55,128 nt of DNA, from IMG/VR virus record IMGVR_UViG_2728369181_000005. The stretch is one strand, 5' to 3'. Below are positions 27,049 to 52,769 of the stretch, piece by piece. The notes under the pieces are model-generated. The model made no database searches and was not told the DNA's origin. It saw only the letters and a list, made by a program, of their open reading frames with translations. Origin of the DNA: a virus. Taxonomy: Duplodnaviria > Heunggongvirae > Uroviricota > Caudoviricetes. Position 1 is the first letter of the stretch. Each line of letters begins with the position of its first letter. The position numbers and the translations under genes are program-made.

Positions 27049-27293
27049 ATGTCGATGTTCACAACCGCCCAGCTGCTGGCGGCAAATGAGCAGAAATTTA
27101 AGTTTGATCCGCTGTTTCTGCGTCTCTTTTTCCGTGAAAGCTATCCCTTCACCACGGAGAAAGTCTATCTCTCACAAATTCCGGGACTGGTAAACATGGC
27201 GCTGTACGTTTCGCCGATTGTTTCCGGTGAGGTTATCCGCTCCCGTGGCGGCTCTACCTCCGAATTTACGCCGGGATATGTCAAGCCGAAGCA
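27049..27293 (+). pseudogene. E: Major capsid protein E, N-terminal fragment (gene split by island insertion)
   Basis: MSMFTTAQLLAANEQKFKFD...GYVKPKH matches the lambda gpE N-terminus, then reads into island DNA and stops at 27324. Confidence 0.9.
27284..27293. repeat. Left copy of 10-bp insertion core AGCCGAAGCA (attL core)
   Basis: Identical 10-mer at 38017-38026; the flanking bases differ, and joining the outer flanks restores a continuous E reading frame (VKPKHEVN). Confidence 0.8.
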
Positions 27294-27402
27294 CTTAGCA
27301 TGGCTTTCTGAGGCTTTCGTGTAGTTGCTGGTTTTTACACTTAATCTTTTGATAATAAAGAGTAAGTTTATCTGGCGCTTTCACTGGATTTTCCTCGTTA
27401 TC

Positions 27403-27441
27403 TGTGTGTTGCAATCATCTCTGTATTGCAGCTTGTATTGC
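27403..27441. repeat. TGT(A/G)TTGCA direct repeats at island left end (candidate integrase arm sites)
   Basis: TGTGTTGCAA, TGTATTGCAG, TGTATTGC within 39 bp just upstream of the island int start; same motif at 37920-37940. Confidence 0.5.
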
Positions 27442-27456
27442 TTTTTGGGGCTAAAA

Positions 27457-28692
27457 ATGGCTGGCGAGAACAAACTGAGCGACAAAGCACTTAAAGGATA
27501 TCTGGGGAAACCTAGAGAAAAGCAGATCACCATTGCTGATGGAAAGGGGCTTTCTATTCGTGTGAGTACCAAGGGGGCTGTGAGCTTTGTTTTCTTCTAC
27601 AGGTTAGCAGGTGGCCGGGCTGCTCCGGTCTGGCTAACGTTGGGTAAATATCCTGATATGTCACTCAAACAGGCAAGGGAAAAGCGCGACGAGTGCCGTG
27701 GTTGGTTGGCTGACAAACGTGATCCGCGTATTCAGATTAAGATTCAGGCTGAAGAACGCTTAAAGCCGGTCACAGTGGAGGATGCACTAAATTACTGGTA
27801 TGAAAATTACTGTAAGGTGCGTCGTAAAACTCATGCTGTAACGCTTGGCAGATTTCGAAAGCATATCTTTCCCTATATCGGTCATTTGCCCGTAAATGAC
27901 ACTCACCTATATGAATGGCTGGACTGTTTTGACCGAATTAAACGTAATGCACCAGTTATGGCGGCGTATGTTTTTTCTGACACTAAATTAGCTCTTCGTT
28001 TTTGTCGGGTACGCCAGTACGCGACGTGTGATGCTTTAAAGGATTTGCGCATGAGTGATGTGGGGCAGATTGCAGGTAAGCGGGATCGGGTTCTGGATGA
28101 AGCCGAACTGGGCCAGCTCTGGAAGGCAATTTTTGTCGAGCCTGATTTAAAACTAATGTCTGAATACACGCGAAAAATGTTTGTGCTTTGTACAGTATTT
28201 GGATGTCGAATGAGTGAAGCCCGATTATCAGAATGGAGCGAATGGGATCTAGAAAGTTGGGTTTGGACTGTACCGAAAGATCACTCAAAAACTGGTGTTG
28301 AAATTGTCAGGCCAGTACCTGAAATTCTACGGCAGTGGGTAACGGATGTTCACGAAGAGACAAAACATACTGGTTATGTGCTGGGAAGTCTGCGAATTAG
28401 AGAAAGCGTAAGCAAGATTGGGGGGAAAATCGGTAAACGTTTGGGCCATGAAAAACAATGGTCACTACACGACCTTAGAAGAACGCTATCTACTCATCTA
28501 AGTGATCTCGGTGTTGAATTTTATGTAGTAGAACAACTGTTAGGCCATGCGCTACCTGGCGTGGCAGGTGTTTACAACCGGAGTAAGTTTATGGCTAAAA
28601 AACTGGATGCTCTGGAACTCTGGACTACATATCTCAATAGCATCGCAGCTGCTGATTCAAAAGTGACAATCCTCAAACAAAAGGCTGGTTAG
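27457..28692 (+). CDS. int: Tyrosine integrase (P4-like family) of the island
   Basis: Start MAGENKLSDKALKGYLGKP...; C-terminal catalytic region with HDLRRT...LGH...Y; first gene at island left end. Confidence 0.88.
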   Translation: MAGENKLSDKALKGYLGKPREKQITIADGKGLSIRVSTKGAVSFVFFYRLAGGRAAPVWLTLGKYPDMSLKQAREKRDECRGWLADKRDPRIQIKIQAEERLKPVTVEDALNYWYENYCKVRRKTHAVTLGRFRKHIFPYIGHLPVNDTHLYEWLDCFDRIKRNAPVMAAYVFSDTKLALRFCRVRQYATCDALKDLRMSDVGQIAGKRDRVLDEAELGQLWKAIFVEPDLKLMSEYTRKMFVLCTVFGCRMSEARLSEWSEWDLESWVWTVPKDHSKTGVEIVRPVPEILRQWVTDVHEETKHTGYVLGSLRIRESVSKIGGKIGKRLGHEKQWSLHDLRRTLSTHLSDLGVEFYVVEQLLGHALPGVAGVYNRSKFMAKKLDALELWTTYLNSIAAADSKVTILKQKAG

Positions 28693-28693
28693 C

Positions 28694-28915
28694 ATGAAAA
28701 AAATGGCAATTGTTGATAAAAAGGGGCTGGAGTACATTCCTAACATTGACCGAATGATCCGTGAGAAAGAATGTCGGGAGCTAACCACTCTTGCGAACAG
28801 CACACGCTGGAAGCTTGAAAAGGAGGGGAAATTCCCCAAGCGAATCAAAATCGGATCTACGGCGGTGGCTTATAGACTCTCTGAGATTCAAGCTTGGATA
28901 AGAGGTGAATGGTAA
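28694..28915 (+). CDS. AlpA-family transcriptional regulator / excisionase-like
   Basis: 73 aa with AlpA-type HTH; directly follows the integrase. Confidence 0.7.
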   Translation: MKKMAIVDKKGLEYIPNIDRMIREKECRELTTLANSTRWKLEKEGKFPKRIKIGSTAVAYRLSEIQAWIRGEW

Positions 28916-28941
28916 GTTAGGGAGGTATTCCTCCCTATATC

Positions 28942-29625
28942 TTACAGGAAATTTTTTAAATCAGGGTTTTTTCCAAATGCGCTCTTATAATATACTGTTG
29001 CAATCTCGTTAAAAATAGTTTTTATATCATCGGTAACCACTATTGTTGCTACGCGCAAATCTTTTTGATATTCATTTAAATCTGGAGGGGTATAGTCCAA
29101 TAGCGTTGATTTATCCAAGATTAAATGTTCTAACATGGCATAGCGCTCAATCAATGTTTTATAAAAATGATATTGATTTTCACTGTTAGCATGTGCACAG
29201 TTTATTGCAAGTAAATACGTTATTTCATTATCTAGATGTGCACGGACAAGGCTTGTATAGGTTTTTTTACGATCTAGATCAAAGGGATGGTATCCAGCAT
29301 TTTCATCAATGAACTTCAATAGATGATATAATATTCTGAAGTAGCTTCCAAAAACAGCATCATGATTGTGCATCAGTGTATTAGTGTCTTTTAAAGAAAC
29401 CAATCCATTCATCATTTTATTAATTAACTCTGAGTAATTTGATTTTTTTCTAAGATCATTTAGAGCATTGTTATGTTGAGATAACATGAGAGAAAATGTT
29501 GATTCAAAAGATGATTGCTTTTTAGCAATTAATGCAACTAACACTGCTGTGCAAGTCCCGAGTGCCACGAAGAAATTTATAATGTTTGATGCAGTGAATA
29601 CAGCATCGTCAGGAGTTGGAGTCAT
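28942..29625 (-). CDS. Hypothetical AT-rich membrane-anchored protein (candidate accessory/defence gene)
   Basis: 227 aa; N-terminal hydrophobic helix FFVALGTCTAVLVALIA; very AT-rich; follows the small regulator at 29658-29852 on the same strand. Confidence 0.45.
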   Translation of the reverse strand: MTPTPDDAVFTASNIINFFVALGTCTAVLVALIAKKQSSFESTFSLMLSQHNNALNDLRKKSNYSELINKMMNGLVSLKDTNTLMHNHDAVFGSYFRILYHLLKFIDENAGYHPFDLDRKKTYTSLVRAHLDNEITYLLAINCAHANSENQYHFYKTLIERYAMLEHLILDKSTLLDYTPPDLNEYQKDLRVATIVVTDDIKTIFNEIATVYYKSAFGKNPDLKNFL

Positions 29626-29657
29626 TTGAATATCCTATTCAATAAAAATTAAAAAAA

Positions 29658-29852
29658 TTAGCCTTTAGGTTCTATACCTTTACGGCGAAGCTCAGCACGA
29701 ACTAATTCTTTAATCCAATTGGCCAAGCTCATTCCTTCCTGAGCTGCTGATTCAGCCATCTGTTCTTTGAGTTCAGGATTGATTCGGATCTGAAACGCAG
29801 GGGCTTTGCCGGCTCCTTTTGGCTGCTTATCTCTTTGAATTGTAGTTGACAT
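29658..29852 (-). CDS. Small ribbon-helix-helix-like DNA-binding protein
   Basis: 64 aa; FQIRINPELKEQMAESAAQEGMSLANWIKELV fits an RHH (Arc/CopG-like) pattern. Confidence 0.45.
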   Translation of the reverse strand: MSTTIQRDKQPKGAGKAPAFQIRINPELKEQMAESAAQEGMSLANWIKELVRAELRRKGIEPKG

Positions 29853-29988
29853 GTGTGTACCTATTGCTTAGCATCAGTGTTGAATAGGTACACACATTAA
29901 CATGATGTTATACCTATAAACAACGCCCTAGGGTGCTCGCAACACACCTAGGGCGTCTAACCACAAACCGTTAACTGGAGTAACGACT

Positions 29989-30354
29989 ATGGCTGGAACA
30001 CAGCATACCCAAACTCACCCTAAATTTATATACATCTTTCTGGCGCTACATCGCGATCGCATAGCAGATGGAGCAACTACGGTACATGTAGCCGCTGACA
30101 CGCTGGTTGATGCGCGCAAGATGGTTAAGGAGATGGGCTATACTGCGGCTTTCTGGAAAGGGCGGGAAGAAAACACGCTGTTTATTCAGAAATGTGAAAA
30201 CAATTTCATCTGGCGTTTTATCGCCCTGAGTACGGCACAACCGCGCGTGATTACCATCGAGGCCACCAGCGAACAGGAAGCCCGCCAGCAATCCCCAACT
30301 GGCTGCGTGATGATATTCGCCGCCCGTATTCGTCAGGAGGTGTGCCATGAATGA
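29989..30354 (+). CDS. Hypothetical protein (possibly Icd-like)
   Basis: 121-codon ORF at the start of the island rightward operon; Icd-like assignment is from memory and weak. Confidence 0.3.
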   Translation: MAGTQHTQTHPKFIYIFLALHRDRIADGATTVHVAADTLVDARKMVKEMGYTAAFWKGREENTLFIQKCENNFIWRFIALSTAQPRVITIEATSEQEARQQSPTGCVMIFAARIRQEVCHE

Positions 30355-30571
30355 TCTTTATTTTAAAGTGCTGACACATGCTGAAAACGCGCTCGTTTGT
30401 GGCAAAAATATGCGAGAAATCTTATCAACCTGGCTTGATGGGACAACAAATGCGGAACACGATGAACGGGATGCTAATTTAGCTGGAGCGTTAATTACGT
30501 TACTTGATCCTGTCATCAAAGAGTTGGATGAAGCTATAAAAATACACGACCAGAGCTATACCGGAGAATAA
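30347..30571 (+). CDS. Hypothetical protein
   Basis: 74-codon ORF overlapping neighbours. Confidence 0.35.
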   Translation: MNDLYFKVLTHAENALVCGKNMREILSTWLDGTTNAEHDERDANLAGALITLLDPVIKELDEAIKIHDQSYTGE

Positions 30572-30574
30572 AAA

Positions 30575-30862
30575 ATGAAAAATAAATTTTCTGGCTTTAT
30601 TGCCAGCGGTCAAACTCATTCAAAAATCAGCCTTGGGGATATTTTCAAAGACAGCTATGGCTATCGGGTAAAGATTATTTCGGTTGATGATCGTCGTGTC
30701 TCTTATTTGCGTGATGGTTATGATTTTGAATGTGTTATGCCGCGTCAGCAGTTCGAAAGAGATTTCATTCTGGTAAAAAATTGCAAGACAGATAATCAGA
30801 GGCGTGCCGCAGGCTATATCCGTAAAATTCGGGCAATGTTAGTTGCCGGAGGTAACAAATGA
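30575..30862 (+). CDS. Hypothetical protein
   Basis: 95-codon ORF; ATGA overlap with the primase gene. Confidence 0.35.
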   Translation: MKNKFSGFIASGQTHSKISLGDIFKDSYGYRVKIISVDDRRVSYLRDGYDFECVMPRQQFERDFILVKNCKTDNQRRAAGYIRKIRAMLVAGGNK

Positions 30863-32679
30863 AACGTGCTCCGAACTTAAAATACCAACCGCGCGACAAA
30901 ATGACGGAAGTCATCATTTTTGCTGGCAGTGATGCCTGGAGCCATGCAAAAGAATGGAATGAATGGGCAGGTAAGCATATTGCAGCAGATGATACACCAC
31001 CAGTCATTCTGGGTACGGAACAACTGGAAAACCTGGATGATATGCAAATTATCGATGAAGGCCGTCATTATGTGCGTGTTTATCGTGCCGGAAAGATTGC
31101 AGAGAAAAGTCTGACGAAGGTTGCGACATTACTTGCTATTGCAGGCGTAAAGGAAGCACGTTGTTACCGTAGCTTTGTTGATCGAGAGCCTGAAGACTGG
31201 ACTCCGCGCCTTGTCGGCCTAAAAGCTGAAGCGGAGCATGGGGAAAGTCTGGTGATTGAACTGCCAGTGAAGAAGGCAGAGCGCAAAAATGACGAGCGTG
31301 CTTCATCTTTGGCGTTGAATCAGATGGGGGCCAGCCAGCGCGGTGAAGTTCTCCTTGCACATTACGGCGGCGAACTGGCAATCAATGCCGACTCTGACAC
31401 CGTTCATCATTACAACGGCGTTGTATGGGAGCCGGTTCAGGATAAAGAGTTACAGCGTGCTATGGCGCAGATTTTCATTGATGCGGAGATCAGCTATTCG
31501 CAGAACGCTATTAAATCGGCGGTAGATACCATGAAGTTAAGTTTGCCTGTAATGGGGAATACAGCCCGTAACCTGATTGGATTCAGTAACGGGGTATTTG
31601 ATACCAGAACTGGTAATTTTCGGGAGCATAACAAAAACGACTGGTTGTTAATTGCCAGTGAATTACCTTTCAGCCCACCAGCAGAGGGGGAAACGCTGGC
31701 AACACATGCGCCGAATTTCTGGAAGTGGTTGCGCCGTTCGGTGGCTGATAATGACCGCAAGGCAGATCGCGTACTGGCGGCATTATTCATGGTGCTGGCG
31801 AACCGGTACGACTGGCAGTTATTCATTGAGGTAACAGGGCCGGGGGGAAGTGGTAAAAGTGTGATGGCGGAGATTTGCACCATGCTGGCGGGTAAGGCGA
31901 ATACAGTATCAGCAAGCATGAAGGCGCTGGAAGATGCAAGGGAACGTGCGTTAGTGGTTGGCTTTTCGCTGATTATCATGCCGGATATGACCCGCTACGC
32001 TGGTGATGGGGCAGGGATTAAGGCCATTACAGGCGGTGACAAGGTGGCAATTGACCCGAAACACAAAGCCCCCTATTCAACGCGTATTCCGGCAGTAGTG
32101 CTGGCGGTTAACAATAACGCCATGTCATTCAGTGACCGCAGCGGGGGGATCTCACGTCGTCGGGTGATATTCAATTTTTCGGAAGTTGTACCGGAGAACG
32201 AACGCGATTCGATGCTGGCGGAAAAAATAGAAGGTGAGCTGGCGGTAGTGATTCGCCATCTGCTTACACGGTTTGCTGATCAGGACGAAGCCAGACGCCT
32301 GTTATATGAGCAGCAGAAATCTGAAGAAGCACTGGCGATAAAGCGAGAGGGGGATTCGCTGGTGGACTTCTGCGGCTATCTCATGGCATCGGTAATGTGT
32401 GATGGCCTGTTAGTGGGTAATGCTGAAATTGTGCCATTCAGCCCACGCAGGTATCTCTATCATGCCTATCTGGCTTATATGAGGGCACATGGGTTTGGTA
32501 AACCTGTAACACTGACGCGCTTCGGTAAAGATATGCCGGGGGCAATGGCGGAATATGGCAGGGAGTATATGAAACGGAAAACGAAGCACGGTTTGCGTTC
32601 AAACGTGACACTGACGGAGGAATCAGAAGACTGGATGCCATCATGTGTATCGGTCACTAATGACGATAGCAAAAATTAA
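30859..32679 (+). CDS. Primase-helicase (P4 alpha-like replication protein)
   Basis: 606 aa; Walker A GPGGSGKS and Walker B-like FSLIIMPDM in the C-terminal half; followed by an iteron array. Confidence 0.85.
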   Translation: MKRAPNLKYQPRDKMTEVIIFAGSDAWSHAKEWNEWAGKHIAADDTPPVILGTEQLENLDDMQIIDEGRHYVRVYRAGKIAEKSLTKVATLLAIAGVKEARCYRSFVDREPEDWTPRLVGLKAEAEHGESLVIELPVKKAERKNDERASSLALNQMGASQRGEVLLAHYGGELAINADSDTVHHYNGVVWEPVQDKELQRAMAQIFIDAEISYSQNAIKSAVDTMKLSLPVMGNTARNLIGFSNGVFDTRTGNFREHNKNDWLLIASELPFSPPAEGETLATHAPNFWKWLRRSVADNDRKADRVLAALFMVLANRYDWQLFIEVTGPGGSGKSVMAEICTMLAGKANTVSASMKALEDARERALVVGFSLIIMPDMTRYAGDGAGIKAITGGDKVAIDPKHKAPYSTRIPAVVLAVNNNAMSFSDRSGGISRRRVIFNFSEVVPENERDSMLAEKIEGELAVVIRHLLTRFADQDEARRLLYEQQKSEEALAIKREGDSLVDFCGYLMASVMCDGLLVGNAEIVPFSPRRYLYHAYLAYMRAHGFGKPVTLTRFGKDMPGAMAEYGREYMKRKTKHGLRSNVTLTEESEDWMPSCVSVTNDDSKN

Positions 32680-32690
32680 ACTTATGGAAT

Positions 32691-32916
32691 AACTGTTCAC
32701 CACTGTTCACCCTGTCATAAATATCTTTTATATCAGTATATTATAGGGTGAACAGTTATTTATGAACTGTTCACCAAACTATTCACTGTTCACCTTTTTG
32801 ATTGTTTATTGAGCTTCAAGGGTGAACAGTGGTGAACAGTTGGTGAATAGTTTTTGTGAAACTGTTCACCCATTAACATTATGAATTAAAAGAGAAAATA
32901 TCAAAAGGTGAACAGG
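32691..32916. repeat. Island replication-origin iterons
   Basis: About ten copies of ACTGTTCACC / GGTGAACAGT in both orientations immediately after the primase stop. Confidence 0.8.
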
Positions 32917-32966
32917 TGAAGGGTTAAAACGCAAAAATTTTAATTTACTGCTGTGAGATAAAGCCT

Positions 32967-33212
32967 ATGACAGCGAAGCACACAAAAAAATCACAATCGC
33001 ACGCCCTTGATTTGACGGAACACTGGTTAAGGGTGTCGATAAAAATCATCGACCGCAACGCCGGGGAAGGATACGCGAAAGCACATCCCGAACTGATTAG
33101 CGCATTCATGACAACGGCGGCTGCAAACTTTGCCACTCTGACCGAACGGGAGATTGCTGAAGCGGAGGAAGTGACAACAATCAATATTAAGTCCGGAGAG
33201 CAGGCAGCATGA
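32967..33212 (+). CDS. Hypothetical protein
   Basis: 81-codon ORF after the iteron array. Confidence 0.35.
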   Translation: MTAKHTKKSQSHALDLTEHWLRVSIKIIDRNAGEGYAKAHPELISAFMTTAAANFATLTEREIAEAEEVTTINIKSGEQAA

Positions 33213-33658
33213 CGGCGCAAATATCAGTTTACGGGCGGTTGGTGGACGACCCGCAGACAAAACAGACCAGCAAGGGCACCCCCATGACGCTGGCGCGTAT
33301 GGCGGTATCACTGCCCTGCAGTCAGTCGGATGACGGTCAGGCGACGATGTGGTTATCTGTCCTGGCGTTTGGCAGACAAGCCGACGCACTGGCAAAGCAT
33401 CACAAAGGCGAACTCCTGAGCGTGGCGGGTAACATGCAGATGAGCCAGTGGACTGGACAGAACGGCGAAACGCGGCAGGGCTGGCAGGTTATCGCAGACA
33501 GCGTAATCAGTGCGCGATCGGTGCGACCGGGCGGCAAAAAAGGCCAACAGGGGCAGGCTACTGACGCACTGAACAGAGCAAAACAACAGGCAGATCAGCA
33601 AGGAAGCCAGCCACCAGTGGGAGATAATGAGCAATGGGGAGATGATATCCCGTTTTAA
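33209..33658 (+). CDS. Single-stranded DNA-binding protein (SSB-like)
   Basis: N-terminal OB-fold pattern ISVYGRLVDDP...ARMAVSL...WLSVLAFG; Gln/Gly-rich tail ending DDIPF. Confidence 0.7.
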   Translation: MTAQISVYGRLVDDPQTKQTSKGTPMTLARMAVSLPCSQSDDGQATMWLSVLAFGRQADALAKHHKGELLSVAGNMQMSQWTGQNGETRQGWQVIADSVISARSVRPGGKKGQQGQATDALNRAKQQADQQGSQPPVGDNEQWGDDIPF

Positions 33659-33875
33659 ATATTGCCAATAAAAAAAGGCCGGAAAAAATAAATTTTCCGG
33701 CATGCTACATAAATCCCGACCAAAGGGAGTGAAGATATTAACACTAATTGTCCGCACTGAAGTTGTCACCCCAAAACTTTATACAACATTGCACTTGGTT
33801 GCATGTGTTCGCATGACAAATATCGGTGGTAGCATATATCCACAATTATTTTTAATGAATGCAAAGAGGATGCGT

Positions 33876-34916
33876 ATGGTTGATTTATATTCGCCTACTC
33901 AGCTTGTACAGGTGGTTAATGCTGTAGATGTACAAAAACAACTAAATGCGTTGTTTACCAGTTTGTTTTTTACTCGCTCGGTAATGTTTGAATCGCGCGA
34001 TATTATTCTTGATACAATCGACGATCCAAATATCCCAATTGCAGCGTTTTGTTCTCCTATGGTGGGTAGTAAAGTTTCACGTGACGAAGGGTACGAATCA
34101 AAAACAATTCGTCCAGGCTATATGAAGCCGAAAAGCAGCATTGATCCAAATAAGTTAGCTGTGCGCCCTGCTGGTGTATCACCTGAGCAATACAATGCTT
34201 TTGGGGCGCGTAATATTAAAGTTAAACAGGCGATTGTAAATCAAGCTAAAGCTATTCGTGCACGTATTGAATGGCTTGCTGTTCAGGCAATCACAACGGG
34301 GAAAAATATCATTGAGGGCGATGGTATTGAACGTTATGAGCTGGACTGGAATATTAAACCACAAAATATCATCACTCAGTCTGGCGGTGCTGAGTGGTCA
34401 GGTAAGGATAAAGAAACTTTTGATCCAAATGATTATATTGAGAGCTACGCAGAATTTAGTGAGGGCGTCACTAATATTATCATTATGGGCGGTAATGTAT
34501 GGAAGAAATACCGTTCATTCAGAGCAATAAAAGAGGCTCTGGATACCCGTCGTGGTTCTAATTCCGAACTGGAAACGGCCCTTAAAGACCTTGGTGATTC
34601 GGTGAGTTTTAAAGGGTATATGGGCGATGTTGCGATTGTTGTTTACAGCGGGCGTTATACCGACGAGGACGGAACAGAAAAACATTTCCTTGATCCTGAT
34701 TTGATGGTGCTTGGCAATACGGCTCTTCAGGGGATTGTCGCCTATGGCGGTGTTCAGGATCCGGAGCTAATCCGAATGGGGCTGACTAAAGCCGAACTTG
34801 CACCGAAAAACTATATTGTGCCTGGTGATCCGGCTATTGAATATGTGCAGACACATTCAGCACCACAGCCAATACCGGCCCGCATCAATCGTTTTGTTAC
34901 CGTTCGCATTGGCTAA
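33876..34916 (+). CDS. Island-encoded major capsid protein (lambda gpE-like)
   Basis: AAGAGGA SD before ATG 33876; aligns with lambda E (GYMKPK vs GYVKPK; ITQSGGAEWSGKDKETFDPNDYIESYA; DTRRGSNSELETA; GDVAIVVYSG). Confidence 0.8.
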   Translation: MVDLYSPTQLVQVVNAVDVQKQLNALFTSLFFTRSVMFESRDIILDTIDDPNIPIAAFCSPMVGSKVSRDEGYESKTIRPGYMKPKSSIDPNKLAVRPAGVSPEQYNAFGARNIKVKQAIVNQAKAIRARIEWLAVQAITTGKNIIEGDGIERYELDWNIKPQNIITQSGGAEWSGKDKETFDPNDYIESYAEFSEGVTNIIIMGGNVWKKYRSFRAIKEALDTRRGSNSELETALKDLGDSVSFKGYMGDVAIVVYSGRYTDEDGTEKHFLDPDLMVLGNTALQGIVAYGGVQDPELIRMGLTKAELAPKNYIVPGDPAIEYVQTHSAPQPIPARINRFVTVRIG

Positions 34917-34925
34917 GGGGGAGCA

Positions 34926-35267
34926 ATGGCTACTCATTACACTGAACTCATGGCTGGCACTGAAGCACTGGTGACTACGCTGGGGATATTTTCAGCTAAT
35001 AAAGGGGTAATTCCTGCATTTACGCCACTGATGCAGGAAGATGCAACAGGTGCACTGGTGGTATGGGATGGTTCGAGCGTAGGTAAAGCGGTTTATGTTT
35101 CCGCTGTACAAATCGACACCGCGAAAAAAACACAGGCTCAGGTCTATAAGACAGGTGTCTTAAATGTTGATGCTCTGAACTGGCCTGAGTCTGTTAAAGA
35201 ACTGTCAGTAAAGGTTGCAGCGTTTGTTGGCTCAGGTATTTCTGTTCAGCCGCTGGCTCGTGTGTAA
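34926..35267 (+). CDS. Island-encoded decoration protein (lambda gpD-like)
   Basis: 113 aa; LVVWDGSSVGKAV parallels lambda [14 protein letters not shown]; same length class. Confidence 0.6.
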   Translation: MATHYTELMAGTEALVTTLGIFSANKGVIPAFTPLMQEDATGALVVWDGSSVGKAVYVSAVQIDTAKKTQAQVYKTGVLNVDALNWPESVKELSVKVAAFVGSGISVQPLARV

Positions 35268-35278
35268 AGGGGGATACA

Positions 35279-35662
35279 ATGCAGAATGATTACAATGACC
35301 TTAAGCCAATTGCCGAAATGATGTACCCGAATCCAGCTGTAGAGGAATTAAAAGCTATCGCTGACAAAATGTGTTTAAGCGAGCGCCTTGTTGATATGAA
35401 TCAGGTGATGGAAATTACAACCCTGAGTCGTCGTACACTGCTAAACCTTGAGGCTAGTGGAGAGTTCCCGGAGCGTGTGCAGGTTACGGAAGGGCGTAAG
35501 GCCTGGTATTTAAGTGAAGTGATCGACTGGATAAATAATATTCCTCGCGCTTCTGAATATTGCCGCGTACCTGTCCCAAAAAAGCCAGATGCGGCGCTAT
35601 GCCTCAAGATTGAGCGTGTACGCCGCAATGCACGGGATGGTCGCTATAAGCTGATTGGTTGA
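35279..35662 (+). CDS. AlpA-type HTH domain protein (possible packaging/regulatory factor)
   Basis: 127 aa; C-terminal half carries an AlpA-like HTH (MNQVMEITTLSRRTLLNLEASGEFPERV). Confidence 0.5.
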   Translation: MQNDYNDLKPIAEMMYPNPAVEELKAIADKMCLSERLVDMNQVMEITTLSRRTLLNLEASGEFPERVQVTEGRKAWYLSEVIDWINNIPRASEYCRVPVPKKPDAALCLKIERVRRNARDGRYKLIG

Positions 35663-35689
35663 TGAAATTAGGGCCCGCTCTGGCTGGCG

Positions 35690-35770
35690 GGTCCTTTCCG
35701 GTGATCCAGAACGTTACGGGGCGTCAGGCGCGCGGGTTTTCGCTATTTATGAGCATTTTAAGGGGACTGG
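35690..35770. other. Island cos-like site with divergent cosN core (35718-35729)
   Basis: GGTCCTTTCCGGTGATCCAGAACGTTACG|GGGCGTCAGGCG|CGCGGGTTTTCGCTATTTATGA: flanks match the prophage cos, the 12-nt core differs at about five positions. Confidence 0.7.
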
Positions 35771-35878
35771 TGGTGGTTTTGTTGTTCGCTATATCTGTAT
35801 GAATAATAAGAGAAAAATACAATCAATACACCAACCTGAAACAGTAATTAAGTTGTGGTATCAATGAAATTACACCTG

Positions 35879-36406
35879 ATGAACAAAAAAAACATGGCAA
35901 AAAGTTGCCGTGTAAGCGCCACTGCGTTCGATAAGTGGGGAGTGATTCCCGTCGAGCGTAAGGGCCGTGAGGCGTTCTATGATGTTGCCAGTGTAATAGA
36001 TAATCGGGTTAACAATGCAATCAGCCAGATTACAAACGAAACGGGCGATATTGATGACGATGAACTTTTACGCGTCAGGATCAGATTACTGACAGCACAG
36101 GCAGAGGCGCAGGAGCTTAAAAACGAGCGCGAACGCGGCGACGTTATTGATACAGAGTTTTGTATGTATGTTCTTTCCAAACTGGCGAGTCAGATTTCAT
36201 CTATCATGGACAGCCTGCCGCTTACCATGCAAAGGCGCTTCCCACAGATGACTCCGGCTATGCTGGATGGACTTAAAAAGGAAGTGGCTAAAGCCTGTAA
36301 TGCCAGTGCCGGCGTTGCTGACAACCTCCCACAGATACTGGCTGATTATCTGATGGAAAGTACAGGAAACGTACCGGATAAGTTGCAGCTGAATAAGGAT
36401 AAGTAA
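35879..36406 (+). CDS. Island small terminase (Nu1-like, diverged)
   Basis: Aligns with lambda Nu1 (VIPVERKGREAFYDV vs MPVLRGGGKGNEVLYD; AQAEAQELKNERERGDVIDTEFC vs AQADAQELKNARDSAEVVETAFC); start codon choice (35864/35879/35894) uncertain. Confidence 0.7.
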   Translation: MNKKNMAKSCRVSATAFDKWGVIPVERKGREAFYDVASVIDNRVNNAISQITNETGDIDDDELLRVRIRLLTAQAEAQELKNERERGDVIDTEFCMYVLSKLASQISSIMDSLPLTMQRRFPQMTPAMLDGLKKEVAKACNASAGVADNLPQILADYLMESTGNVPDKLQLNKDK

Positions 36407-36417
36407 CGTAGTACGCT

Positions 36418-36693
36418 ATGACTGAATCCGAACTACTGAAAGTAATCTGCCATGCTGGTGGAGTCAGCCACCAGCATGACGAACAGGCCACGCAGCCGGG
36501 CAGTGTCACCGCTGAAAATTACGCTCGTGTGGTTGCTGAGGTTATGTGGCGTGACGGTATAGAACTGAACGGACAGGATTGCTTAGTCATCCGCACCAAA
36601 GTGCTGGCTATACTGGCAGCTAGGCGGAGGCAGGGACAACGCCAGAACGTTGCATCGTACCAGTGGAAGAAGCCTGACAGACTGCGGCGATAA
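36418..36693 (+). CDS. Hypothetical protein
   Basis: 91-codon ORF following the TerS-like gene. Confidence 0.35.
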   Translation: MTESELLKVICHAGGVSHQHDEQATQPGSVTAENYARVVAEVMWRDGIELNGQDCLVIRTKVLAILAARRRQGQRQNVASYQWKKPDRLRR

Positions 36694-37095
36694 CTCTTTG
36701 ATTTTCTCGACGGCCCCAAAATGGGCCTTACCATAGCCAGCTAATAAATGAGCAAGCCTCAAAAGTGAGGTTTGTGGCCGTTTGGCCTATTCATATGCTA
36801 ACTCGTTGATATTCCTGACGACGCAAATTTACGCCTTGTGGCTGGTAGTCGAATTGCAAATTTGCAACTCGACTATGAAACTACAGGTAGTTTGGGTAGT
36901 AAAAGCAACACACTGATTTTGGGGCTTCTTCGCGATACCTAATATTATGGTATCGGTGGAAGAGATATCGTTTCTCATAGGTTAGCACCGAGGGCGGAGT
37001 TCCGCCCTCATCGAAAAATTGCTTACGAGTCGTCAAAATAAATTAATCGACTGAGTATAATGATTAACTAATTGCTCGTGTTACTTCATTATACG

Positions 37096-37857
37096 TTATT
37101 TCCCATCTTTAAGGTTTAACCAAGTGTTAATTAAAAAAAGAGCCATTGAGCCTGATAAATTTACTGCAAGTTCGGCATGCCTTGGGGATGGCTTAATTGA
37201 TGAGCTGTTCGTTCCATGTGCATCACCGAGTTTATTACGAAGAGTACCTAACCCATTTACAACTGCAGAACAACCGCCGAGAATTTGTTTGAAGATATTT
37301 TCAGTATGTTGGTCGGCAGATAGGTTAAGTTCTTTTGAAAGAGTTTTATAAAGCTCTGACATTTCAATATTTTTATTATTATACTGAATGCCCATATCAT
37401 CAAGAATGTGTTTGCAAACTGTTTCAAGAAGTGTTCTTGCGGAGGTTATCGCACCATCCGGATCTGTATGGCGCCGTTCAAGTGCTTTTATCCAAACGGC
37501 GTGGACTCCATCCTCGTTAAACTTTCTTAATACATCAGATATGTCTTCATCCGCTGGAGCTTTATTTTTCCCTTCTAGATAGTCCAGCATCGGCTGAAAT
37601 GCCTTATAAATCAAATCTCTCCGGGGGGCATACTTTTCAGTCTTTTTTATAAATCCCCAAAATTCTTTTAGTGAGCGATTAGTTCTCACAAACTCTGGTA
37701 ATAGCTGATGTAAAGGAGGATTTTGTAAGAAATATGTTCTTAGAAGCAAATAATCATTATTAGCTTCATCCTGGGCTCCTGTAGCTCTTGCAATTAGTAT
37801 GTTTTGAAGCGCTACTGCGCGCTCTAGGTCATTTTGAAGGGTATCTATAATATTCAT
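37096..37857 (-). CDS. Abortive-infection-like protein (Abi_C/HEPN-type motif)
   Basis: 253 aa, AT-rich, opposite strand at the island right end; C-terminal GTLRNKLGDAHG (R-x6-H) matches the Abi_C/HEPN signature as recalled. Confidence 0.6.
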   Translation of the reverse strand: MNIIDTLQNDLERAVALQNILIARATGAQDEANNDYLLLRTYFLQNPPLHQLLPEFVRTNRSLKEFWGFIKKTEKYAPRRDLIYKAFQPMLDYLEGKNKAPADEDISDVLRKFNEDGVHAVWIKALERRHTDPDGAITSARTLLETVCKHILDDMGIQYNNKNIEMSELYKTLSKELNLSADQHTENIFKQILGGCSAVVNGLGTLRNKLGDAHGTNSSSIKPSPRHAELAVNLSGSMALFLINTWLNLKDGK

Positions 37858-37919
37858 AACAAATCTTTATTCACTTCATTTGTGGGTTGATAATTGAATG
37901 GTTTGTACATTGATTTCTG

Positions 37920-37940
37920 TGTATTGCAGTGTGTATTGCA
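37920..37940. repeat. TGTATTGCA direct repeats at island right end
   Basis: TGTATTGCAG and TGTATTGCA, same orientation as the left-end copies. Confidence 0.5.
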
Positions 37941-38016
37941 ACATAGCCATTCAGGTAGAGATTATGCTCTATTTTTCCTCTTATATCATTCACATACTTA
38001 CACCATTGACTCATGT

Positions 38017-38026
38017 AGCCGAAGCA
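38017..38026. repeat. Right copy of 10-bp insertion core AGCCGAAGCA (attR core)
   Basis: Identical to 27284-27293. Confidence 0.8.
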
Positions 38027-38807
38027 TGAGGTGAATCCGCAGATGACCCTGCGTCGCCTGCCGGATGAAGATCCACAGAATCTGGCGGATCCGGCTTACC
38101 GTCGCCGTCGCATCATCATGCAGAACATGCGTGACGAAGAGCTGGCCATTGCCCAGGTCGAAGAGATGCAGGCAGTTTCTGCCGTGCTTAAGGGCAAATA
38201 CACCATGACCGGTGAAGCCTTCGATCCGGTTGAGGTGGATATGGGCCGCAGTGCGGCGAACAACATCACGCAGTCCGGCGGTACGGAGTGGAGCAAGCGT
38301 GACAAGTCCACGTATGACCCGACCGACGATATCGAAGCCTACGCGCTGAACGCCAGCGGTGTGGTGAATATCATCGTGTTCGATCCGAAAGGCTGGGCGC
38401 TGTTCCGTTCCTTCAAAGCCGTCAGGGAGAAGCTGGATACCCGTCGCGGCTCTCATTCTGAGCTGGAGACAGCGGTGAAAGACCTGGGTAAAGCGGTGTC
38501 CTATAAGGGGATGTATGGCGATGTGGCCATCGTCGTGTATTCCGGACAGTACGTGGAAAACGGTGTCAAAAAGAACTTCCTGCCGGACAACACGATGGTG
38601 CTTGGGAACACTCAGGCACGCGGTCTGCGCACCTATGGCTGTATTCAGGATGCGGATGCATTGAGTGAGGGTATTAATGCGTCTCCCCGTTATCCGAAAA
38701 ACTGGAAGACATCCGGCGATCCGGCGCGTGAGTTCACCATGATTCAGTCAGCACCGCTGATGCTGCTGGCTGATCCTGATGAGTTCGTGTCCGTACAACT
38801 GGCGTAA
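38020..38807 (+). pseudogene. E: Major capsid protein E, C-terminal fragment
   Basis: PKHEVNPQMTLRRLPDEDPQNL... to ...DEFVSVQLA matches lambda gpE from residue ~83 onward; no start of its own. Confidence 0.9.
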
Positions 38808-40591: not shown

Positions 40592-40598
40592 GGACGCT

Positions 40599-41339: not shown

Positions 41340-41354
41340 TCCGGAGAGTCAGCG

Positions 41355-44776: not shown

Positions 44777-45102
44777 AAACCTTCCGCTGGAAAGTGAAAC
44801 CCGGTATGGATGTGGCTTCGTCCCCTTCTGTAAGAAAGGTGCGCTTTGGTGATGGCTATTCCCAGCGAGCGCCTGCCGGGCTGAATGCCAACCTGAAAAC
44901 GTACAGCGTGACGCTGTCTGTCCCCCGTGAGGAGGCCACGGTACTGGAGTCGTTTCTGGAAGAGCACGGGGGCTGGAAAGCCTTTCTGTGGACGCCGCCT
45001 TATGAGTGGCGGCAGATAAAGGTGACCTGCGCAAAATGGTCGTCGCGGGTCAGTATGCTGCGTGTTGAGTTCAGCGCAGAGTTTGAACAGGTGGTGAACT
45101 GA
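44773..45102 (+). CDS. M: Tail tip protein M
   Basis: 109 aa matching lambda gpM. Confidence 0.9.
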   Translation: MKTFRWKVKPGMDVASSPSVRKVRFGDGYSQRAPAGLNANLKTYSVTLSVPREEATVLESFLEEHGGWKAFLWTPPYEWRQIKVTCAKWSSRVSMLRVEFSAEFEQVVN

Positions 45103-45800
45103 TGCAGGATATCCGGCAGGAAACACTGAATGAATGCACCCGTGCGGAGCAGTCGGCCAGCGTGGTGCTCTGGGAAATCGACCTGACAGAGGTCGGTGGA
45201 GAACGTTATTTTTTCTGTAATGAGCAGAACGAAAAAGGTGAGCCGGTCACCTGGCAGGGGCGACAGTATCAGCCGTATCCCATTCAGGGGAGTGGTTTTG
45301 AACTGAATGGCAAAGGCACCAGTACGCGCCCCACGCTGACGGTTTCTAACCTGTACGGTATGGTCACCGGGATGGCGGAAGATATGCAGAGTCTGGTCGG
45401 CGGAACGGTGGTCCGGCGTAAGGTTTACGCCCGTTTTCTGGATGCGGTGAACTTCGTCAACGGAAACAGTGACGCCGATCCGGAGCAGGAGGTGATCAGC
45501 CGCTGGCGCATCGAGCAGTGCAGCGAACTGAGCGCGGTGAGTGCCTCCTTTGTACTGTCCACGCCGACGGAAACGGATGGCGCTGTTTTTCCGGGACGTA
45601 TCATGCTGGCCAACACCTGCACCTGGACCTATCGCGGTGACGAGTGCGGTTATCACGGTCCGGCTGTCGCGGATGAATATGACCAGCCGACGTCCGATAT
45701 CACGAAAGATAAATGCAGCAAATGCCTGAGTGGCTGTAAGTTTCGCAATAACGTCGGCAACTTTGGCGGCTTCCTTTCCATTAACAAACTTTCGCAGTAA
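45102..45800 (+). CDS. L: Tail tip protein L
   Basis: 232 aa matching lambda gpL, with a Cys cluster near the C-terminus. Confidence 0.9.
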   Translation: MQDIRQETLNECTRAEQSASVVLWEIDLTEVGGERYFFCNEQNEKGEPVTWQGRQYQPYPIQGSGFELNGKGTSTRPTLTVSNLYGMVTGMAEDMQSLVGGTVVRRKVYARFLDAVNFVNGNSDADPEQEVISRWRIEQCSELSAVSASFVLSTPTETDGAVFPGRIMLANTCTWTYRGDECGYHGPAVADEYDQPTSDITKDKCSKCLSGCKFRNNVGNFGGFLSINKLSQ

Positions 45801-45804
45801 TCCC

Positions 45805-46548
45805 ATGACAGAGACAGAATCAGCGATTCTGGCGCACGCCCGGCGATGTGCGCCAGCGGAGTCGTGCGGCTTCGTGGTAAGCACGCCGGAGGGGGAAAGA
45901 TATTTTCCCTGCGTGAATATTTCCGGTGAGCCGGAGGATTATTTCCGGATGGCTCCGGAGGACTGGCTGCAGGCCAAAATGCAGGGTGAGATTGTGGCGC
46001 TGGTCCACAGTCACCCCGGTGGTCTGCCCTGGCTGAGTGAGGCCGACCGGCGGCTGCAGGTGCAGAGTGATTTGCCGTGGTGGCTGGTCTGCCGGGGGAC
46101 GATTCATAAGTTCCGCTGTGTGCCGCATCTCACCGGGCGGCGCTTTGAGCACGGGGTGACGGACTGTTACACGCTGTTCCGGGATGCTTATCATCTGGCG
46201 GGGATTGAGATGCCGGATTTTCATCGCGAGGATGACTGGTGGCGTCACGGTCAGAATCTCTATCTGGATAATCTGGAGGCCACAGGGCTGTATCAGGTGC
46301 CGTTGTCATCAGCACAACCGGGCGATGTGCTGCTGTGCTGTTTTGGTTCATCGGTGCCGAATCATGCCGCCATTTACTGTGGTGATGGCGAGCTGCTGCA
46401 CCATATTCCTGAACAACTGAGCAAACGAGAGAGGTATACCGACAAATGGCAGCGACGCACACACTCCCTCTGGCGTCACCGGGCATGGCGCGCATCTGCC
46501 TTTACGGGGATTTGCAACGATTTGGCCGCCGCATCGACCTTCGTGTGA
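45805..46548 (+). CDS. K: Tail assembly protein K (JAB/NlpC-P60 type)
   Basis: MTETESAILAHARRCAPAESCGFVV... matches lambda gpK. Confidence 0.9.
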   Translation: MTETESAILAHARRCAPAESCGFVVSTPEGERYFPCVNISGEPEDYFRMAPEDWLQAKMQGEIVALVHSHPGGLPWLSEADRRLQVQSDLPWWLVCRGTIHKFRCVPHLTGRRFEHGVTDCYTLFRDAYHLAGIEMPDFHREDDWWRHGQNLYLDNLEATGLYQVPLSSAQPGDVLLCCFGSSVPNHAAIYCGDGELLHHIPEQLSKRERYTDKWQRRTHSLWRHRAWRASAFTGICNDLAAASTFV

Positions 46549-46814
46549 AAACGGGGGCTGAAGCCATCCGCGCACTGGCCACACAGCTCCCGGTGTTTCG
46601 TCAGAAACTGAGCGACGGCTGGTATCAGGTACGGATTGCCGGGCGGGACGTCAGCACGTCCGGGTTAACGGCGCAGTTACATGAGACTCTGCCTGATGGC
46701 GCTGTGATTCATATTGTTCCCAGAGTCGCCGGGGCCAAGTCAGGTGGCGTATTCCAGATTGTCCTGGGGGCTGCCGCCATTGCCGGATCATTCTTTACCG
46801 CCGGAGGGATTTGA
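46446..46814 (+). pseudogene. I: Tail assembly protein I, truncated after ~121 residues
   Basis: Matches lambda gpI up to ...AIAGSFFTAG, then reads GI-stop where J-homologous sequence begins in another frame. Confidence 0.6.
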
Positions 46815-49800
46815 ATCCTCCGGCTCCGAGACGGTGCTGGGTACGGAAGTGAAATATGACACGCCGATCACCCGGACCATCACGTCGGCAAACATCGACC
46901 GTCTGCGCTTTACCTTCGGTGTACAGGCACTGGNNNNNNNNNNNNNNNNNNNNNNNNNNNNNNNNNNNNNNNNNNNNNNNNNNNNNNNNNNNNNNNNAGA
47001 CAGGAATCCGTCGGAAGTTCGCCTGCTGGTTCAGATACAGCGTAACGGTGGCTGGGTGACGGAAAAAGACATCACCATTAAGGGCAAAACCACCTCGCAG
47101 TATCTGGCCTCGGTGGTGGTGGATAACCTGCCGCCGCGCCCGTTTAATATCCGGATGCGCAGGATGACGCCGGACAGCACCACAGACCAGCTGCTGAACA
47201 AAACGCTCTGGTCGTCATACACCGAAATCATCGATGTGAAACAGTGCTACCCGAACACGGCACTGGTTGGCGTGCAGGTGGACTCGGAGCAGTTCGGCAG
47301 CCAGCAGGTGAGCCGTAATTATCATCTTCGCGGGCGCATTCTGCAGGTGCCGTCGAACTATAACCCGCAGACGCGGCAATACAGCGGTATCTGGGACGGA
47401 ACGTTAAAACCGGCATACAGCAACAACATGGCCTGGTGTCTGTGGGATATGCTGACCCATCCGCGCTACGGCATGGGGAAACGTCTTGGTGCGGCGGATG
47501 TGGATAAATGGGCGCTGTATGTCATCGGCCAGTACTGCGACCAGTCGGTGCCGGACGGCTTTGGCGGCACGGAGCCGCGCATTACCTGTAATGCGTACCT
47601 GACCACACAGCGCAAGGCGTGGGATGTGCTCAGTGATTTCTGCTCGGCGATGCGCTGTATGCCGGTATGGAACGGGCAGACGCTGACGTTCGTGCAGGAC
47701 CGACCATCAGATAAGGTGTGGACCTATAACCGCAGTAATGTGGTGATGCCGGATGATGGCGCGCCGTTCCGCTACAGCTTCAGCGCCCTGAAGGACCGCC
47801 ATAATGCCGTTGAGGTGAACTGGATTGACCCGGATAACGGCTGGGAGACGGCGACAGAGCTCGTGGAGGATACGCAGGCCATTGCCCGTTACGGCCGTAA
47901 CGTCACGAAGATGGATGCCTTTGGCTGTACCAGCCGGGGGCAGGCACACCGCGCCGGGCTGTGGCTGATTAAAACGGAGCTGCTGGAAACGCAGACCGTG
48001 GACTTCAGCGTGGGTGCTGAAGGGCTTCGCCATGTACCGGGGGATGTCATTGAAATCTGCGATGATGACTATGCCGGTATCAGCACCGGTGGTCGTGTGC
48101 TGGCGGTGAACAGCCAGACCCGGACGCTGACGCTCGACCGTGAAATCACGCTGCCATCCTCCGGTACCACGCTGATAAGCCTGGTTGACGGAAGTGGCAA
48201 TCCGGTCAGCGTGGAGGTTCAGTCCGTCACCGACGGCGTGAAGGTGAAAGTGAGCCGTGTTCCTGACGGTGTTGCTGAATACAGCGTATGGGGGCTGAAG
48301 CTGCCGACGCTGCGCCAGCGACTGTTCCGCTGCGTGAGTATCCGTGAAAACGACGACGGCACGTATGCCATCACCGCCGTGCAGCATGTGCCGGAAAAAG
48401 AGACCATCGTGGATAACGGGGCGCACTTTGACGGCGAACAGAGTGGCACGGTGAATGGTGTCACGCCGCCCGCGGTGCAGCACCTGACCGCAGAAGTCAC
48501 CGCAGACAGCGGGGAATATCAGGTGCTGGCGCGATGGGACACACCGAAGGTGGTGAAGGGGGTGAGCTTTATGCTTCGCCTGACCGTGGCAGCGGATGAC
48601 GGCAGTGAGCGGCTGGTCAGCACGGCCAGGACGACGGAAACCACATACCGCTTCAGGCAACTGGCGCTGGGGAACTACAGGCTGACAGTCCGGGCGGTAA
48701 ATGCGTGGGGGCAGCAGGGGGATCCGGCGTCGGTATCGTTCCGGATTGCCGCACCGGCAGCGCCATCGCGGATTGAGCTGACGCCGGGCTATTTTCAGAT
48801 AACCGCCACGCCGCATCTTGCCGTTTATGATCCGACGGTACAGTTTGAGTTCTGGTTCTCGGAAAAGCGGATTGCGGATATCAGGCAGGTTGAAGCCAGC
48901 GCGCGTTATCTTGGTACGGCGCTGTACTGGATAGCCGCCAGTATCAATATCAAACCGGGCCATGATTATTATTTTTACATTCGCAGTGTGAACACCGTTG
49001 GCAAATCGGCATTTGTGGAGGCTGTTGGCCAGCCGAGTGATGATGCATCCGGCTATCTGGATTTTTTCAAAGGAGAGATAGGGAAAACCCATCTGGCTCA
49101 GGAGTTGTGGACGCAGATTGATAACGGTCAGCTTGCGCCTGACCTGGCTGAAATCAGGACGTCCATTACGGATGTCAGCAATGAAATCACGCAGACCGTC
49201 AATAAGAAACTGGAAGACCAGAGTGCAGCGATCCAGCAGATACAGAAGGTTCAGGTTGATACAAATAATAACCTGAACAGCATGTGGGCTGTGAAGCTGC
49301 AGCAGATGCAGGACGGACGCCTTTATATCGCGGGTATTGGTGCCGGTATTGAGAATACCCCTGACGGTATGCAGAGTCAGGTGCTGCTGGCGGCGGACAG
49401 GATTGCGATGATTAATCCTGCGAATGGCAATACAAAGCCGATGTTTGTTGGGCAGGGCGATCAGATATTCATGAACGAAGTGTTCCTGAAATATCTGACG
49501 GCTCCCACCATTACCAGCGGTGGCAATCCCCCAACGTTTTCACTGACACCTGATGGTCGACTTTCTGCGAGAAATGCGGATATCAGCGGTAACGTGAATG
49601 CGAACTCCGGGACGCTCAATAATGTCACGATTAACCAGAACTGTCGGATTCTGGGAAAACTGTCAGCTAACCAGATTGAAGGTGATATTGTCAAAACGGT
49701 GGGAAAAGCCTTTCCGAGAAATGGCAGTTATGCCAGCGGTACAATAACGGTCACTGTGTACGATGACCAGGCTTTTGACCGTCAGATAGTCGTCCCCCCC

Positions 49801-50069
49801 GTTCTGTTTCGCGGTGGTAAGCATGAAAACTTCAACAGCAACAACCAACAGTCATACTGGTATTCAACCTGTAAGCTGCANNNNNNNNNNNNNNNNNNNN
49901 NNNNNNNNNNNNNNNNNNNNNNNNNNNNNNNNNNNNNNNNNNNNNNNNNNNNNNNNNNNNNNNNNNNNNNNNNNNNNNNNNNNNAAATAACTGGACGCCA
50001 ACGACCAGTATCAGCGACCTTCTTGTTGTCGTGATGAAGAAATCAACAGCCGGCATCAGTATCAGTTGA
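46801..50069 (+). pseudogene. J: Central tail fibre / host-specificity protein J, 5'-truncated, with two assembly gaps
   Basis: Homology to lambda gpJ begins at PEGFESSGSETVLGTEVKYD (about 85 residues into J as recalled) with no start codon nearby; N-runs at 46924-46997 and 49881-49984; C-terminal receptor-binding region diverges from lambda. Confidence 0.7.
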
Positions 50070-52188: not shown

Positions 52189-52463
52189 AAGATTTAACTT
52201 TGAAGTTTCATGACAAACTGCAGTTTAAGGCCTTCCTGTCATCTCTTGGCTGGGCGGAAGATGAAGACCTCCAGAATAAACTGTTAGTTGATGAAATTGG
52301 TTTCACCTACACAGAAACAGGGGTAACAGAAGAGGGAGAACCTGTCTGTATCCGGAATGATGGTTATTTTGTCAACATTCGCATTCTTGATGACTTGTTT
52401 GATGTTTCTGTATTCTCTGATTATGTCGTGGAGCTGGAAACACCGCTTCGGGAATGGAGCTGA
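52185..52463 (+). CDS. Hypothetical protein (in the tail-fibre assembly chaperone position, not Tfa-like)
   Basis: 92-codon acidic ORF overlapping the stf stop (ATGA). Confidence 0.4.
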   Translation: MKDLTLKFHDKLQFKAFLSSLGWAEDEDLQNKLLVDEIGFTYTETGVTEEGEPVCIRNDGYFVNIRILDDLFDVSVFSDYVVELETPLREWS

Positions 52464-52475
52464 AAGGAGGAAATA

Positions 52476-52769
52476 ATGGATATAAGCCCCTTACTTCATG
52501 CACTTTGTGCTGTGGCTGCGCAGATACTGGTTGGTCTTTTTACCGGAAACTGGGCTTACGGAGCGATAGCCGGTTGTACGTTCTTCATTGCGCGTGAACA
52601 TACCCAGGCAGAATATCGCTGGATTGAAATGTTCGGGCATGGCAAGCGAATGAATATGCCGTGGTGGGGCGGTTTTGATCCGCGTGCTTGGGATGTGGCA
52701 AGCCTGATGGATTTTGCTGTGCCGGTGGTGGCGTGTCTGCTGGTCTGGGTATTTATCCGTTCAACATAA
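52476..52769 (+). CDS. Hypothetical small membrane protein
   Basis: 97 aa with two hydrophobic segments (LCAVAAQILVGLF..., FAVPVVACLLVWVFI); SD AGGAGG upstream. Confidence 0.4.
   Translation: MDISPLLHALCAVAAQILVGLFTGNWAYGAIAGCTFFIAREHTQAEYRWIEMFGHGKRMNMPWWGGFDPRAWDVASLMDFAVPVVACLLVWVFIRST

Follow-up and report, generated by a model that had tools for sequence, protein, structure and literature searches.

A probable short-homology deletion at tail genes I and J of a lambda-like prophage that carries a phage satellite in its capsid gene

The 55,128-nucleotide stretch of DNA analysed here (the window; IMG/VR record IMGVR_UViG_2728369181_000005) contains a lambda-like E. coli prophage that lacks 608 bp present in its intact relatives, and the missing interval is bounded by two direct copies of the 10-mer ACCGCCGGAG. 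Taken as a whole, the data make it very likely that this is a recent, RecA-independent short-homology deletion that inactivates tail genes I and J, and that it belongs to an early stage of prophage decay, unrelated in origin to the reversible PICI insertion in the capsid gene E of the same prophage.

Structure of the deletion

In the intact relatives, one copy of ACCGCCGGAG lies within gene I and the other within gene J, at a spacing of 608 bp. The window keeps a single copy, at 46797..46806 (no strand assigned), and both a repeat search and an in-silico deletion place the junction there. Alignment to phage PhiR47_2 together with a repeat search likewise puts one copy of the repeat in each of the two genes, 608 bp apart, and the pair recurs at this spacing in three of the loci that we compared (L001, L010 and L012); in some relatives the repeat is 9 bp long. 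The extra 608 bases are carried by PhiR47_2, E. coli C 237-04, STEC409 and GCA_013075085.1, and removing them in silico from the intact prophage of STEC409 yields a sequence that matches window positions 46600-46930 at 331 of 331 bases. A megablast search with positions 46000-47400 against deposited phages returned lambda-like phages at 97-99% identity, each match spreading the 1401-base query over 1964 phage bases in three pieces. The same repeat at both parental endpoints, one copy left behind and an exact reconstruction are the marks of a short-homology deletion, and all three are present here. The junction contains no foreign DNA, no IS element and no att site, and a promoter and terminator scan around it revealed nothing created by the deletion.

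The deletion takes out the final 103 codons of I together with its stop, the 60 nt between I and J, which contain the J ribosome-binding site, and the ATG and codons 1-76 of J. Because 608 is not a multiple of 3 (608 mod 3 = 2), the I frame enters J sequence and stops after two codons, which also rules out an in-frame I-J fusion, a candidate that we had considered. An earlier sequence-only reading of this DNA had proposed a deletion at the I-J junction that truncates I and leaves J without a start, and had recommended alignment with an intact I-J region as the check; that alignment bears the proposal out and fixes the deletion at 608 bp. The same reading had noted a CCGGAGG microhomology near the junction. 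It was right that a repeat lies at the breakpoints, while the motif itself needs correction, as the repeat is the 10-mer given above and the last G of CCGGAGG is found on the J side only.

The structure of the junction suggests that the 608 bp would have been lost by replication slippage or by illegitimate recombination at a pair of 10-bp direct repeats; in a lambda-like prophage, one of the pair normally falls mid-gene in I and the other 76 codons into J. In its repeats of about 10 bp at the endpoints, its single retained copy and its lack of inserted sequence, the junction resembles both the microhomology deletions known from E. coli and the lesions of decaying cryptic lambdoid prophages, and, as in those, structural genes of a resident prophage are inactivated. 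It differs in that the rest of the late operon in the window is intact, which puts the prophage very early in its decay: Nu1, A, W, B, C, D, FI, FII, Z, U, V, G, T, H, M, L, K and the side fibre gene are all full length and collinear with those of relatives.

Distribution and origin of the junction

An 80-bp query spanning the junction gave no contiguous match in any of 5,426 complete RefSeq E. coli genomes, and the junction was likewise absent from all 98 matching records among deposited phages and all 48 matching PLSDB plasmid records. In this, too, it differs from the known microhomology deletions and decayed cryptic prophages. The exact junction 24-mer was not found in IMG/VR or JGI metagenome contigs; it was also not found in the GTDB species-representative genomes, an uninformative result for E. 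coli, which has a single representative there. The 24-mer is present in seven of our compared loci (L003, L004, L011, L015, L018, L020 and L026).

A protein identical to the K protein of the window is found in many NCBI assemblies, and we considered the 24 longest contigs that encode it. Ten of these encode complete I and J. Neither product is seen in GCA_023359095.1 or in 12 "similar places", and GCA_002519415.1 is annotated with calls of 89 and 1090 amino acids; the 12 additional carriers were assigned from gene content, and counts of "similar places" vary with the size of flank used. The lineage with the deletion probably comprises 15 or more sequenced isolates. Intact siblings, among them GCA_013075085.1 and GCA_043163875.1, match the window without a single mismatch, the 608 bp aside, across the 7.9-14.5 kb that were compared. 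Since siblings that are mismatch-free in the flanks compared keep the interval, the deletion is recent and lineage-specific.

The junction occurs in three downstream contexts: that of the window, that of GCA_023359095.1, in which the side-fibre region is 94.7% identical, and that of ERZ27309469, in which the body of J is 96% identical. Other E. coli lineages have different lesions at the I-J boundary, for example the UMNF18 group and the 97-3250 group, the latter with a J that lacks its N-terminus. One might take these observations, together with the presence of the junction in roughly 14 of the 24 longest contigs with the identical K allele (12 of them by gene content), as signs that the deletion is recurrent or selected, either because the ACCGCCGGAG pair is a slippage hotspot or because loss of the tail tip is favoured, for example through domestication of a defence-carrying composite element. 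Recombination between prophage arms is frequent, however, and metagenome contigs may be chimeric, so that one origin explains the data more simply; moreover, 50 other pairs of 10-bp repeats occur in K-J alone, of which 17 are within 1 kb, and no complete genome has the junction. We therefore judge recurrence or selection unlikely. The different lesions in other lineages fit ordinary decay. Under the preferred reading, that of a single short-homology deletion, the differing downstream sequences would be accounted for by one origin followed by recombination, which we assume, and the lesion would be a strain-lineage polymorphism, the first step of prophage decay.

Gene K, the truncated I and the J remnant

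Gene K (45805..46548, + strand), which encodes the JAB/NlpC-P60 tail tip assembly protein, is full length at 247 amino acids, with a tblastn match over residues 1-247 at 98% identity to K of C 237-04, and its 3' end overlaps the start of the truncated gene I. The lambda-type I and J are 92-100% identical to the neighbouring window sequence.

The truncated I (I') occupies 46446..46814 on the + strand and would encode 122 amino acids, ending in a TGA at 46812-46814. It consists of gpI residues 1-120, the last of them SFFTAG, followed by a new Gly-Ile and the stop; the sequence-only reading, which had seen a match to lambda gpI for about 121 residues and then termination, was thus correct. The Pfam domain Lambda_tail_I (PF06805) is complete in I', with residues 14-97 aligned to profile positions 2-83 of 83 at 101.7 bits, against a cut-off of 23.8 bits. 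Compared with lambda gpI, I' keeps this N-terminal domain and lacks approximately residues 121-223, which contain the hydrophobic helices H1 and H2, the plug, and the C-terminal strands that pair with gpJ. The lost region is the part of gpI that is modelled in PDB 8IYK and 9E7M, and the last approximately 90 residues of gpI, modelled in 9E7M, fall entirely inside the deleted 608 bp. In the tail tip, gpI is a trimer seen from residue 135 to residue 223 (from residue 101 in the closed state); it places two hydrophobic helices and a plug in the lumen of the tip, supports the C-terminus of the tape measure protein and pairs with gpJ through beta-sheet augmentation (PMC10721106, PMC11101478). The product of I' would accordingly have the N-terminal domain alone, deprived of the helices and plug of the tip trimer.

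From 46798, at J codon 77, the sequence is again homologous to J, now in frame +1 with respect to I', in agreement with the sequence-only reading, which had placed the beginning of J homology well inside J and in a different frame. The J remnant ('J) extends from there to the end of the gene (46798..50069, + strand) and in the window is crossed by two scaffold gaps; in a gap-free sibling assembly (L011) it runs uninterrupted through 1114 codons as far as the native stop. 'J has no ribosome-binding site of its own, no ATG and no codons 1-76, which encode the N-terminal part of the hub region. Pfam matches show that the FNIII-A_GpJ and Phage-tail_3 domains are kept. Set against lambda gpJ (PDB 8IYK, 8XCG and 9E7M), 'J thus retains the FNIII-A domain, the rest of the hub, the fibre and the receptor-binding end, but it is missing residues 1-76 and its own translation start. 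In terms of the proposed mechanism, J would have lost its translation start along with the first 76 residues of the hub region.

Upstream of the junction, the J frame contains four near-cognate start codons on the + strand within 46714..46782 (TTG at 46714, GTG at 46744, TTG at 46759 and TTG at 46780), which alone could serve as entry points for translation of 'J. Predicted anti-SD pairing at these codons is weak to modest, at -1.8 to -8.4 kcal/mol, and TTG 46780 has a modest SD-like G-run. The annotation of GCA_002519415.1 starts its 1090-amino-acid J product at TTG 46780, alongside the I call of 89 amino acids. Such starts could allow some N-terminally altered J to be produced at a low level.

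These codons, and the fact that a public annotation makes use of one of them, are what could be said for regarding the arrangement as a natural functional variant, that is, for supposing that there are lambdoid phages that work with a short I and an internal start of J. The sequence-only reading had named functional phages of this kind as the alternative to look for, but none of the 98 matching phage records has the junction, and full I and J are present in all of the phage relatives inspected. The lost segments are ordered, interacting parts of a tail tip whose structure has been solved, and the full interval in siblings with mismatch-free compared flanks marks the deleted form as the derived one. 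We give a functional variant hardly any credence, and regard I' and 'J as the products of a deletion in a prophage that formerly had both genes.

The junction in independent assemblies

The window record corresponds to GCA_001571585.1, a draft, and lies on its scaffold LRXN01000013.1; our locus L018 is identical to it, including the runs of N. GCA_023359095.1, an earlier candidate for the source, is set aside by its different right arm. Five scaffold gaps lie inside the window prophage, and their lengths are wrong: a sibling assembly free of gaps has 9 nt where the draft has 38 N, 19 nt where it has 64 N and 132 nt where it has 104 N. The gap nearest to the junction starts 128 nt downstream of it (46934..46997, no strand assigned); here 64 N take the place of 19 nt of ordinary J sequence, and the gap is outside the lesion. 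These wrong lengths account for what look like broken frames in A, C, H and J. We had also considered that the runs of N might be length-preserving masks, in which case A, C, H and J would be frameshifted, and rejected this: the runs are gaps of the deposited draft, and their lengths are unlike those of the true sequence.

Two other NCBI assemblies have the junction within gap-free contigs, GCA_023359095.1 in one of 376 kb that is 100% identical to window positions 35776-49880, and GCA_002519415.1 in one of 367 kb. It is also present in two short-read assemblies, in a contig of ERZ27309469 built by MEGAHIT and in a Logan contig of SRR31108466. A search of the literature for the two sample accessions gave no result. 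Although a misjoin in a gapped scaffold built from two similar prophages might have been suspected in a draft with five wrong-length gaps in the prophage, one of them so close to the junction, the gap-free contigs have the same junction, so do contigs that two other assemblers produced from separate data sets, and an overlap of 10 bp is far below the joining criterion of any assembler, which leaves a misjoin with a negligible chance of being the explanation. Because the junction stands in independent gap-free contigs, an assembly artefact is excluded for practical purposes, and the deletion is not an assembly error.

The satellite in gene E

Gene E, encoding the major capsid protein, is interrupted in the window. 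Its 5' fragment of approximately 81 codons (27049..27293, + strand), delimited by alignment to E of phage ev243, ends in AGCCGAAGCA at 27284-27293, and its 3' fragment (38017..38807, + strand) begins with the second att identity block, again AGCCGAAGCA, at 38017-38026. Between them lies a helper-embedded PICI of the 11capE type, 10.7 kb in length (27294..38016, + strand), which we assigned by its gene content, the identity of its integrase and comparison with published elements (PMC10111431). It carries genes for an integrase, an AlpA-like HTH protein, an Icd-like protein, a primase and an SSB, capsid and packaging genes for an E-like capsid protein, a D-like decoration protein and a Nu1-like small terminase, and, as cargo, two Abi-type genes. 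The int, primase and capsid genes are on the + strand, co-oriented with the late operon.

Helper-embedded PICIs in E have been described at the site E:Phage_cap_E:80, with a 10-bp att identity block (Tommasini et al. 2023, PMC10111431). Expression of E has to await excision of the satellite, and such excision after induction has been observed, experimentally in NRG857c only (PMC10111431). No infectious particles have so far been obtained from helper-embedded satellites (PMC10111431). The element in the window is placed in the 11capE clade by its integrase, 409 of whose 411 residues are identical to the integrase of Eco567.11capE of NRG857c, and its insertion at about codon 80 of the lambda E cognate, its 10-bp identity block and its late-gene orientation are those of 11capE elements. 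The closest parallel is thus Eco567.11capE in prophage 50icd of E. coli NRG857c (Tommasini, Mageeney & Williams 2023, PMC10111431), with which the window element shares the site in E, the 10-bp block, the gene order and an integrase that is 99.5% identical; relatives of the prophage in the window also sit at icd. The two differ in their cargo, which is HEPN/DUF262 in NRG857c and Abi-type in the window, and in their helpers, since I and J are intact in the NRG857c helper, whereas the window helper has also lost its tail tip and has a right arm of another type. The scaffold thus joins an icd-type left arm to a right arm of the prfC/osmY side.

By analogy with NRG857c, the split E is a known, reversible satellite insertion and no lesion of decay, and excision of the satellite is expected to rebuild E in the window prophage. 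The sequence-only reading had counted the split E as a defect and had called the prophage head-defective, which finds no support in an arrangement that matches the published PICI configuration. Its suggestion that the prophage may be parasitised by the island was broadly right, in that the island is a phage satellite embedded in the prophage. Nothing suggests, on the other hand, that the prophage depends on the island, as that reading had also proposed; a tail-tip defect would strand satellite and helper alike.

At least 80% of the island is found in 40 complete genomes, all of them without the I-J junction; I and J are intact in all three of the island-carrying genomes inspected (C 237-04, 95-3322 and NRG857c). 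Because these carriers have intact I and J and the junction is absent from the 40, the interruption of E is independent of the I-J deletion, and by the same comparison of sequences it predates it.

Consequences for the prophage and its satellite

In lambda, I and J are both needed for assembly of the tail-tip initiator, as established by classical lambda genetics (Katsura and co-workers). Because the initiator needs both, it is a sound inference, by analogy with lambda, that the window prophage is tail-defective; by itself it would be incapable of assembling the tail-tip initiator and would consequently make no tails. The source draft probably contains a second, similar lambdoid prophage, and complementation in trans by another lambdoid prophage may occur. 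A tail-tip defect would block the spread of both helper and satellite unless another lambdoid phage supplied tails.

One may go further and suppose that the deletion causes the composite element to produce tail-less, DNA-filled heads, which would spread only with tails borrowed from a co-resident lambdoid prophage, in the manner of capsid-forming PICIs, and that the allele persists because this dependence, or an immobilised defence-carrying element, is tolerated or favoured. We think it improbable that this is so. If it were true, pairs of isolates with and without the deletion would offer a ready means of testing which contributions of the helper a helper-embedded PICI requires.

As an instance of resident prophage decay that starts through small repeat-mediated deletions, the I-J deletion is one more example and matters little alone. 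It does correct the reading of this locus, in which the I-J deletion is the only true structural lesion and the break in the capsid gene is due to the regulated insertion of a satellite; calls of prophage intactness made from "split genes" would be wrong here. Natural pairs are at hand in GCA_023359095.1 and GCA_002519415.1, which have the deletion, and GCA_013075085.1 and GCA_043163875.1, which are intact, all of them mismatch-free in the flanking prophage DNA compared. Public isolates that differ, in the part of the prophage compared, by only the 608 bp are thus possible natural controls for experiments on helper-embedded satellites.

Assembly gaps and the right arm

The five runs of N in the window (23001-23059, 26508-26547, 44373-44410, 46934-46997 and 49881-49984) are gaps of the deposited draft scaffold, GCA_001571585.1, and their lengths disagree with the real sequence; for example, runs of 64, 38 and 104 N take the place of 19, 9 and 132 nt. 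Genes A, C, H and J thus look frameshifted only as an artefact of these wrong-length gaps. Gene H is normal, at 853 aa, in the gap-free sibling.

The right arm, at about 50566-55128, has a mosaic structure: up to about 50565 the window matches the sibling composite GCA_023359095.1 at 100% identity, and beyond it, in the side-fibre gene, at about 94%. The last gene of the window (53245-55128, minus strand) encodes an OLD-family ATPase/TOPRIM nuclease with GajA/AriA/Old-like matches, and in the source record dinI, prfC and osmY come after it, whereas relatives have sitABCD and the icd fragment instead. From the sequences compared, this pattern suggests either that two lambdoid prophages recombined or inverted between each other, or that there is a problem in the scaffold.

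The satellite in gene E

Judged by its sequence, the 10.7-kb island inside capsid gene E (27284-38026), with its integrase and 10-bp att block (AGCCGAAGCA), is the already published 11capE type of helper-embedded PICI (PMC10111431); its integrase is identical to that of the type element in E. coli NRG857c at 409 of 411 positions. Island cargo differs from strain to strain. In other strains 11capE-type islands carry TIR, DUF2971 or HEPN/DUF262 genes, while that of the window is Abi-type, with an AbiJ-like gene (37099-37857) and a weakly matching AbiC/AbiP-like gene (28945-29625).

The I-J border and helper decay

The junction is also present in contig k141_17986 of ERZ27309469, the upstream part of which is 100% identical to the window. 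Downstream of the junction (contig positions 530-1237), the J body is only 96% identical, with 28 mismatches in 708 nt. Recombination of the allele, a deletion that arose independently or chimerism of the metagenome contig could each explain this.

Other E. coli lineages, namely UMNF18 with six porcine ETEC, and 97-3250 with related genomes, carry lesions at the I/J boundary that differ from this one and are independent of it. One such lesion is a remnant with the order nohD'-fragment-'J; in another, an intact I is followed by a J pseudogene without its N-terminus. Prophage erosion seems to be frequent at the I-J border.

Among complete genomes, the closest relative of the window composite is E. 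coli 95-3322. The window prophage carries morons: a gene for an OmpC-like porin (16167-17309, minus strand) lies between Q and the lysis genes, and Rz is followed by iss/bor, a gene for a serum-resistance lipoprotein (19040-19381, minus strand). Both are annotated likewise in the near-identical prophage of 95-3322. The annotation of that strain also gives the head protease/scaffold gene C (39004-40320 of the 95-3322 locus) an internal stop and calls it a pseudogene, and thus the helpers of this satellite decay differently from strain to strain.
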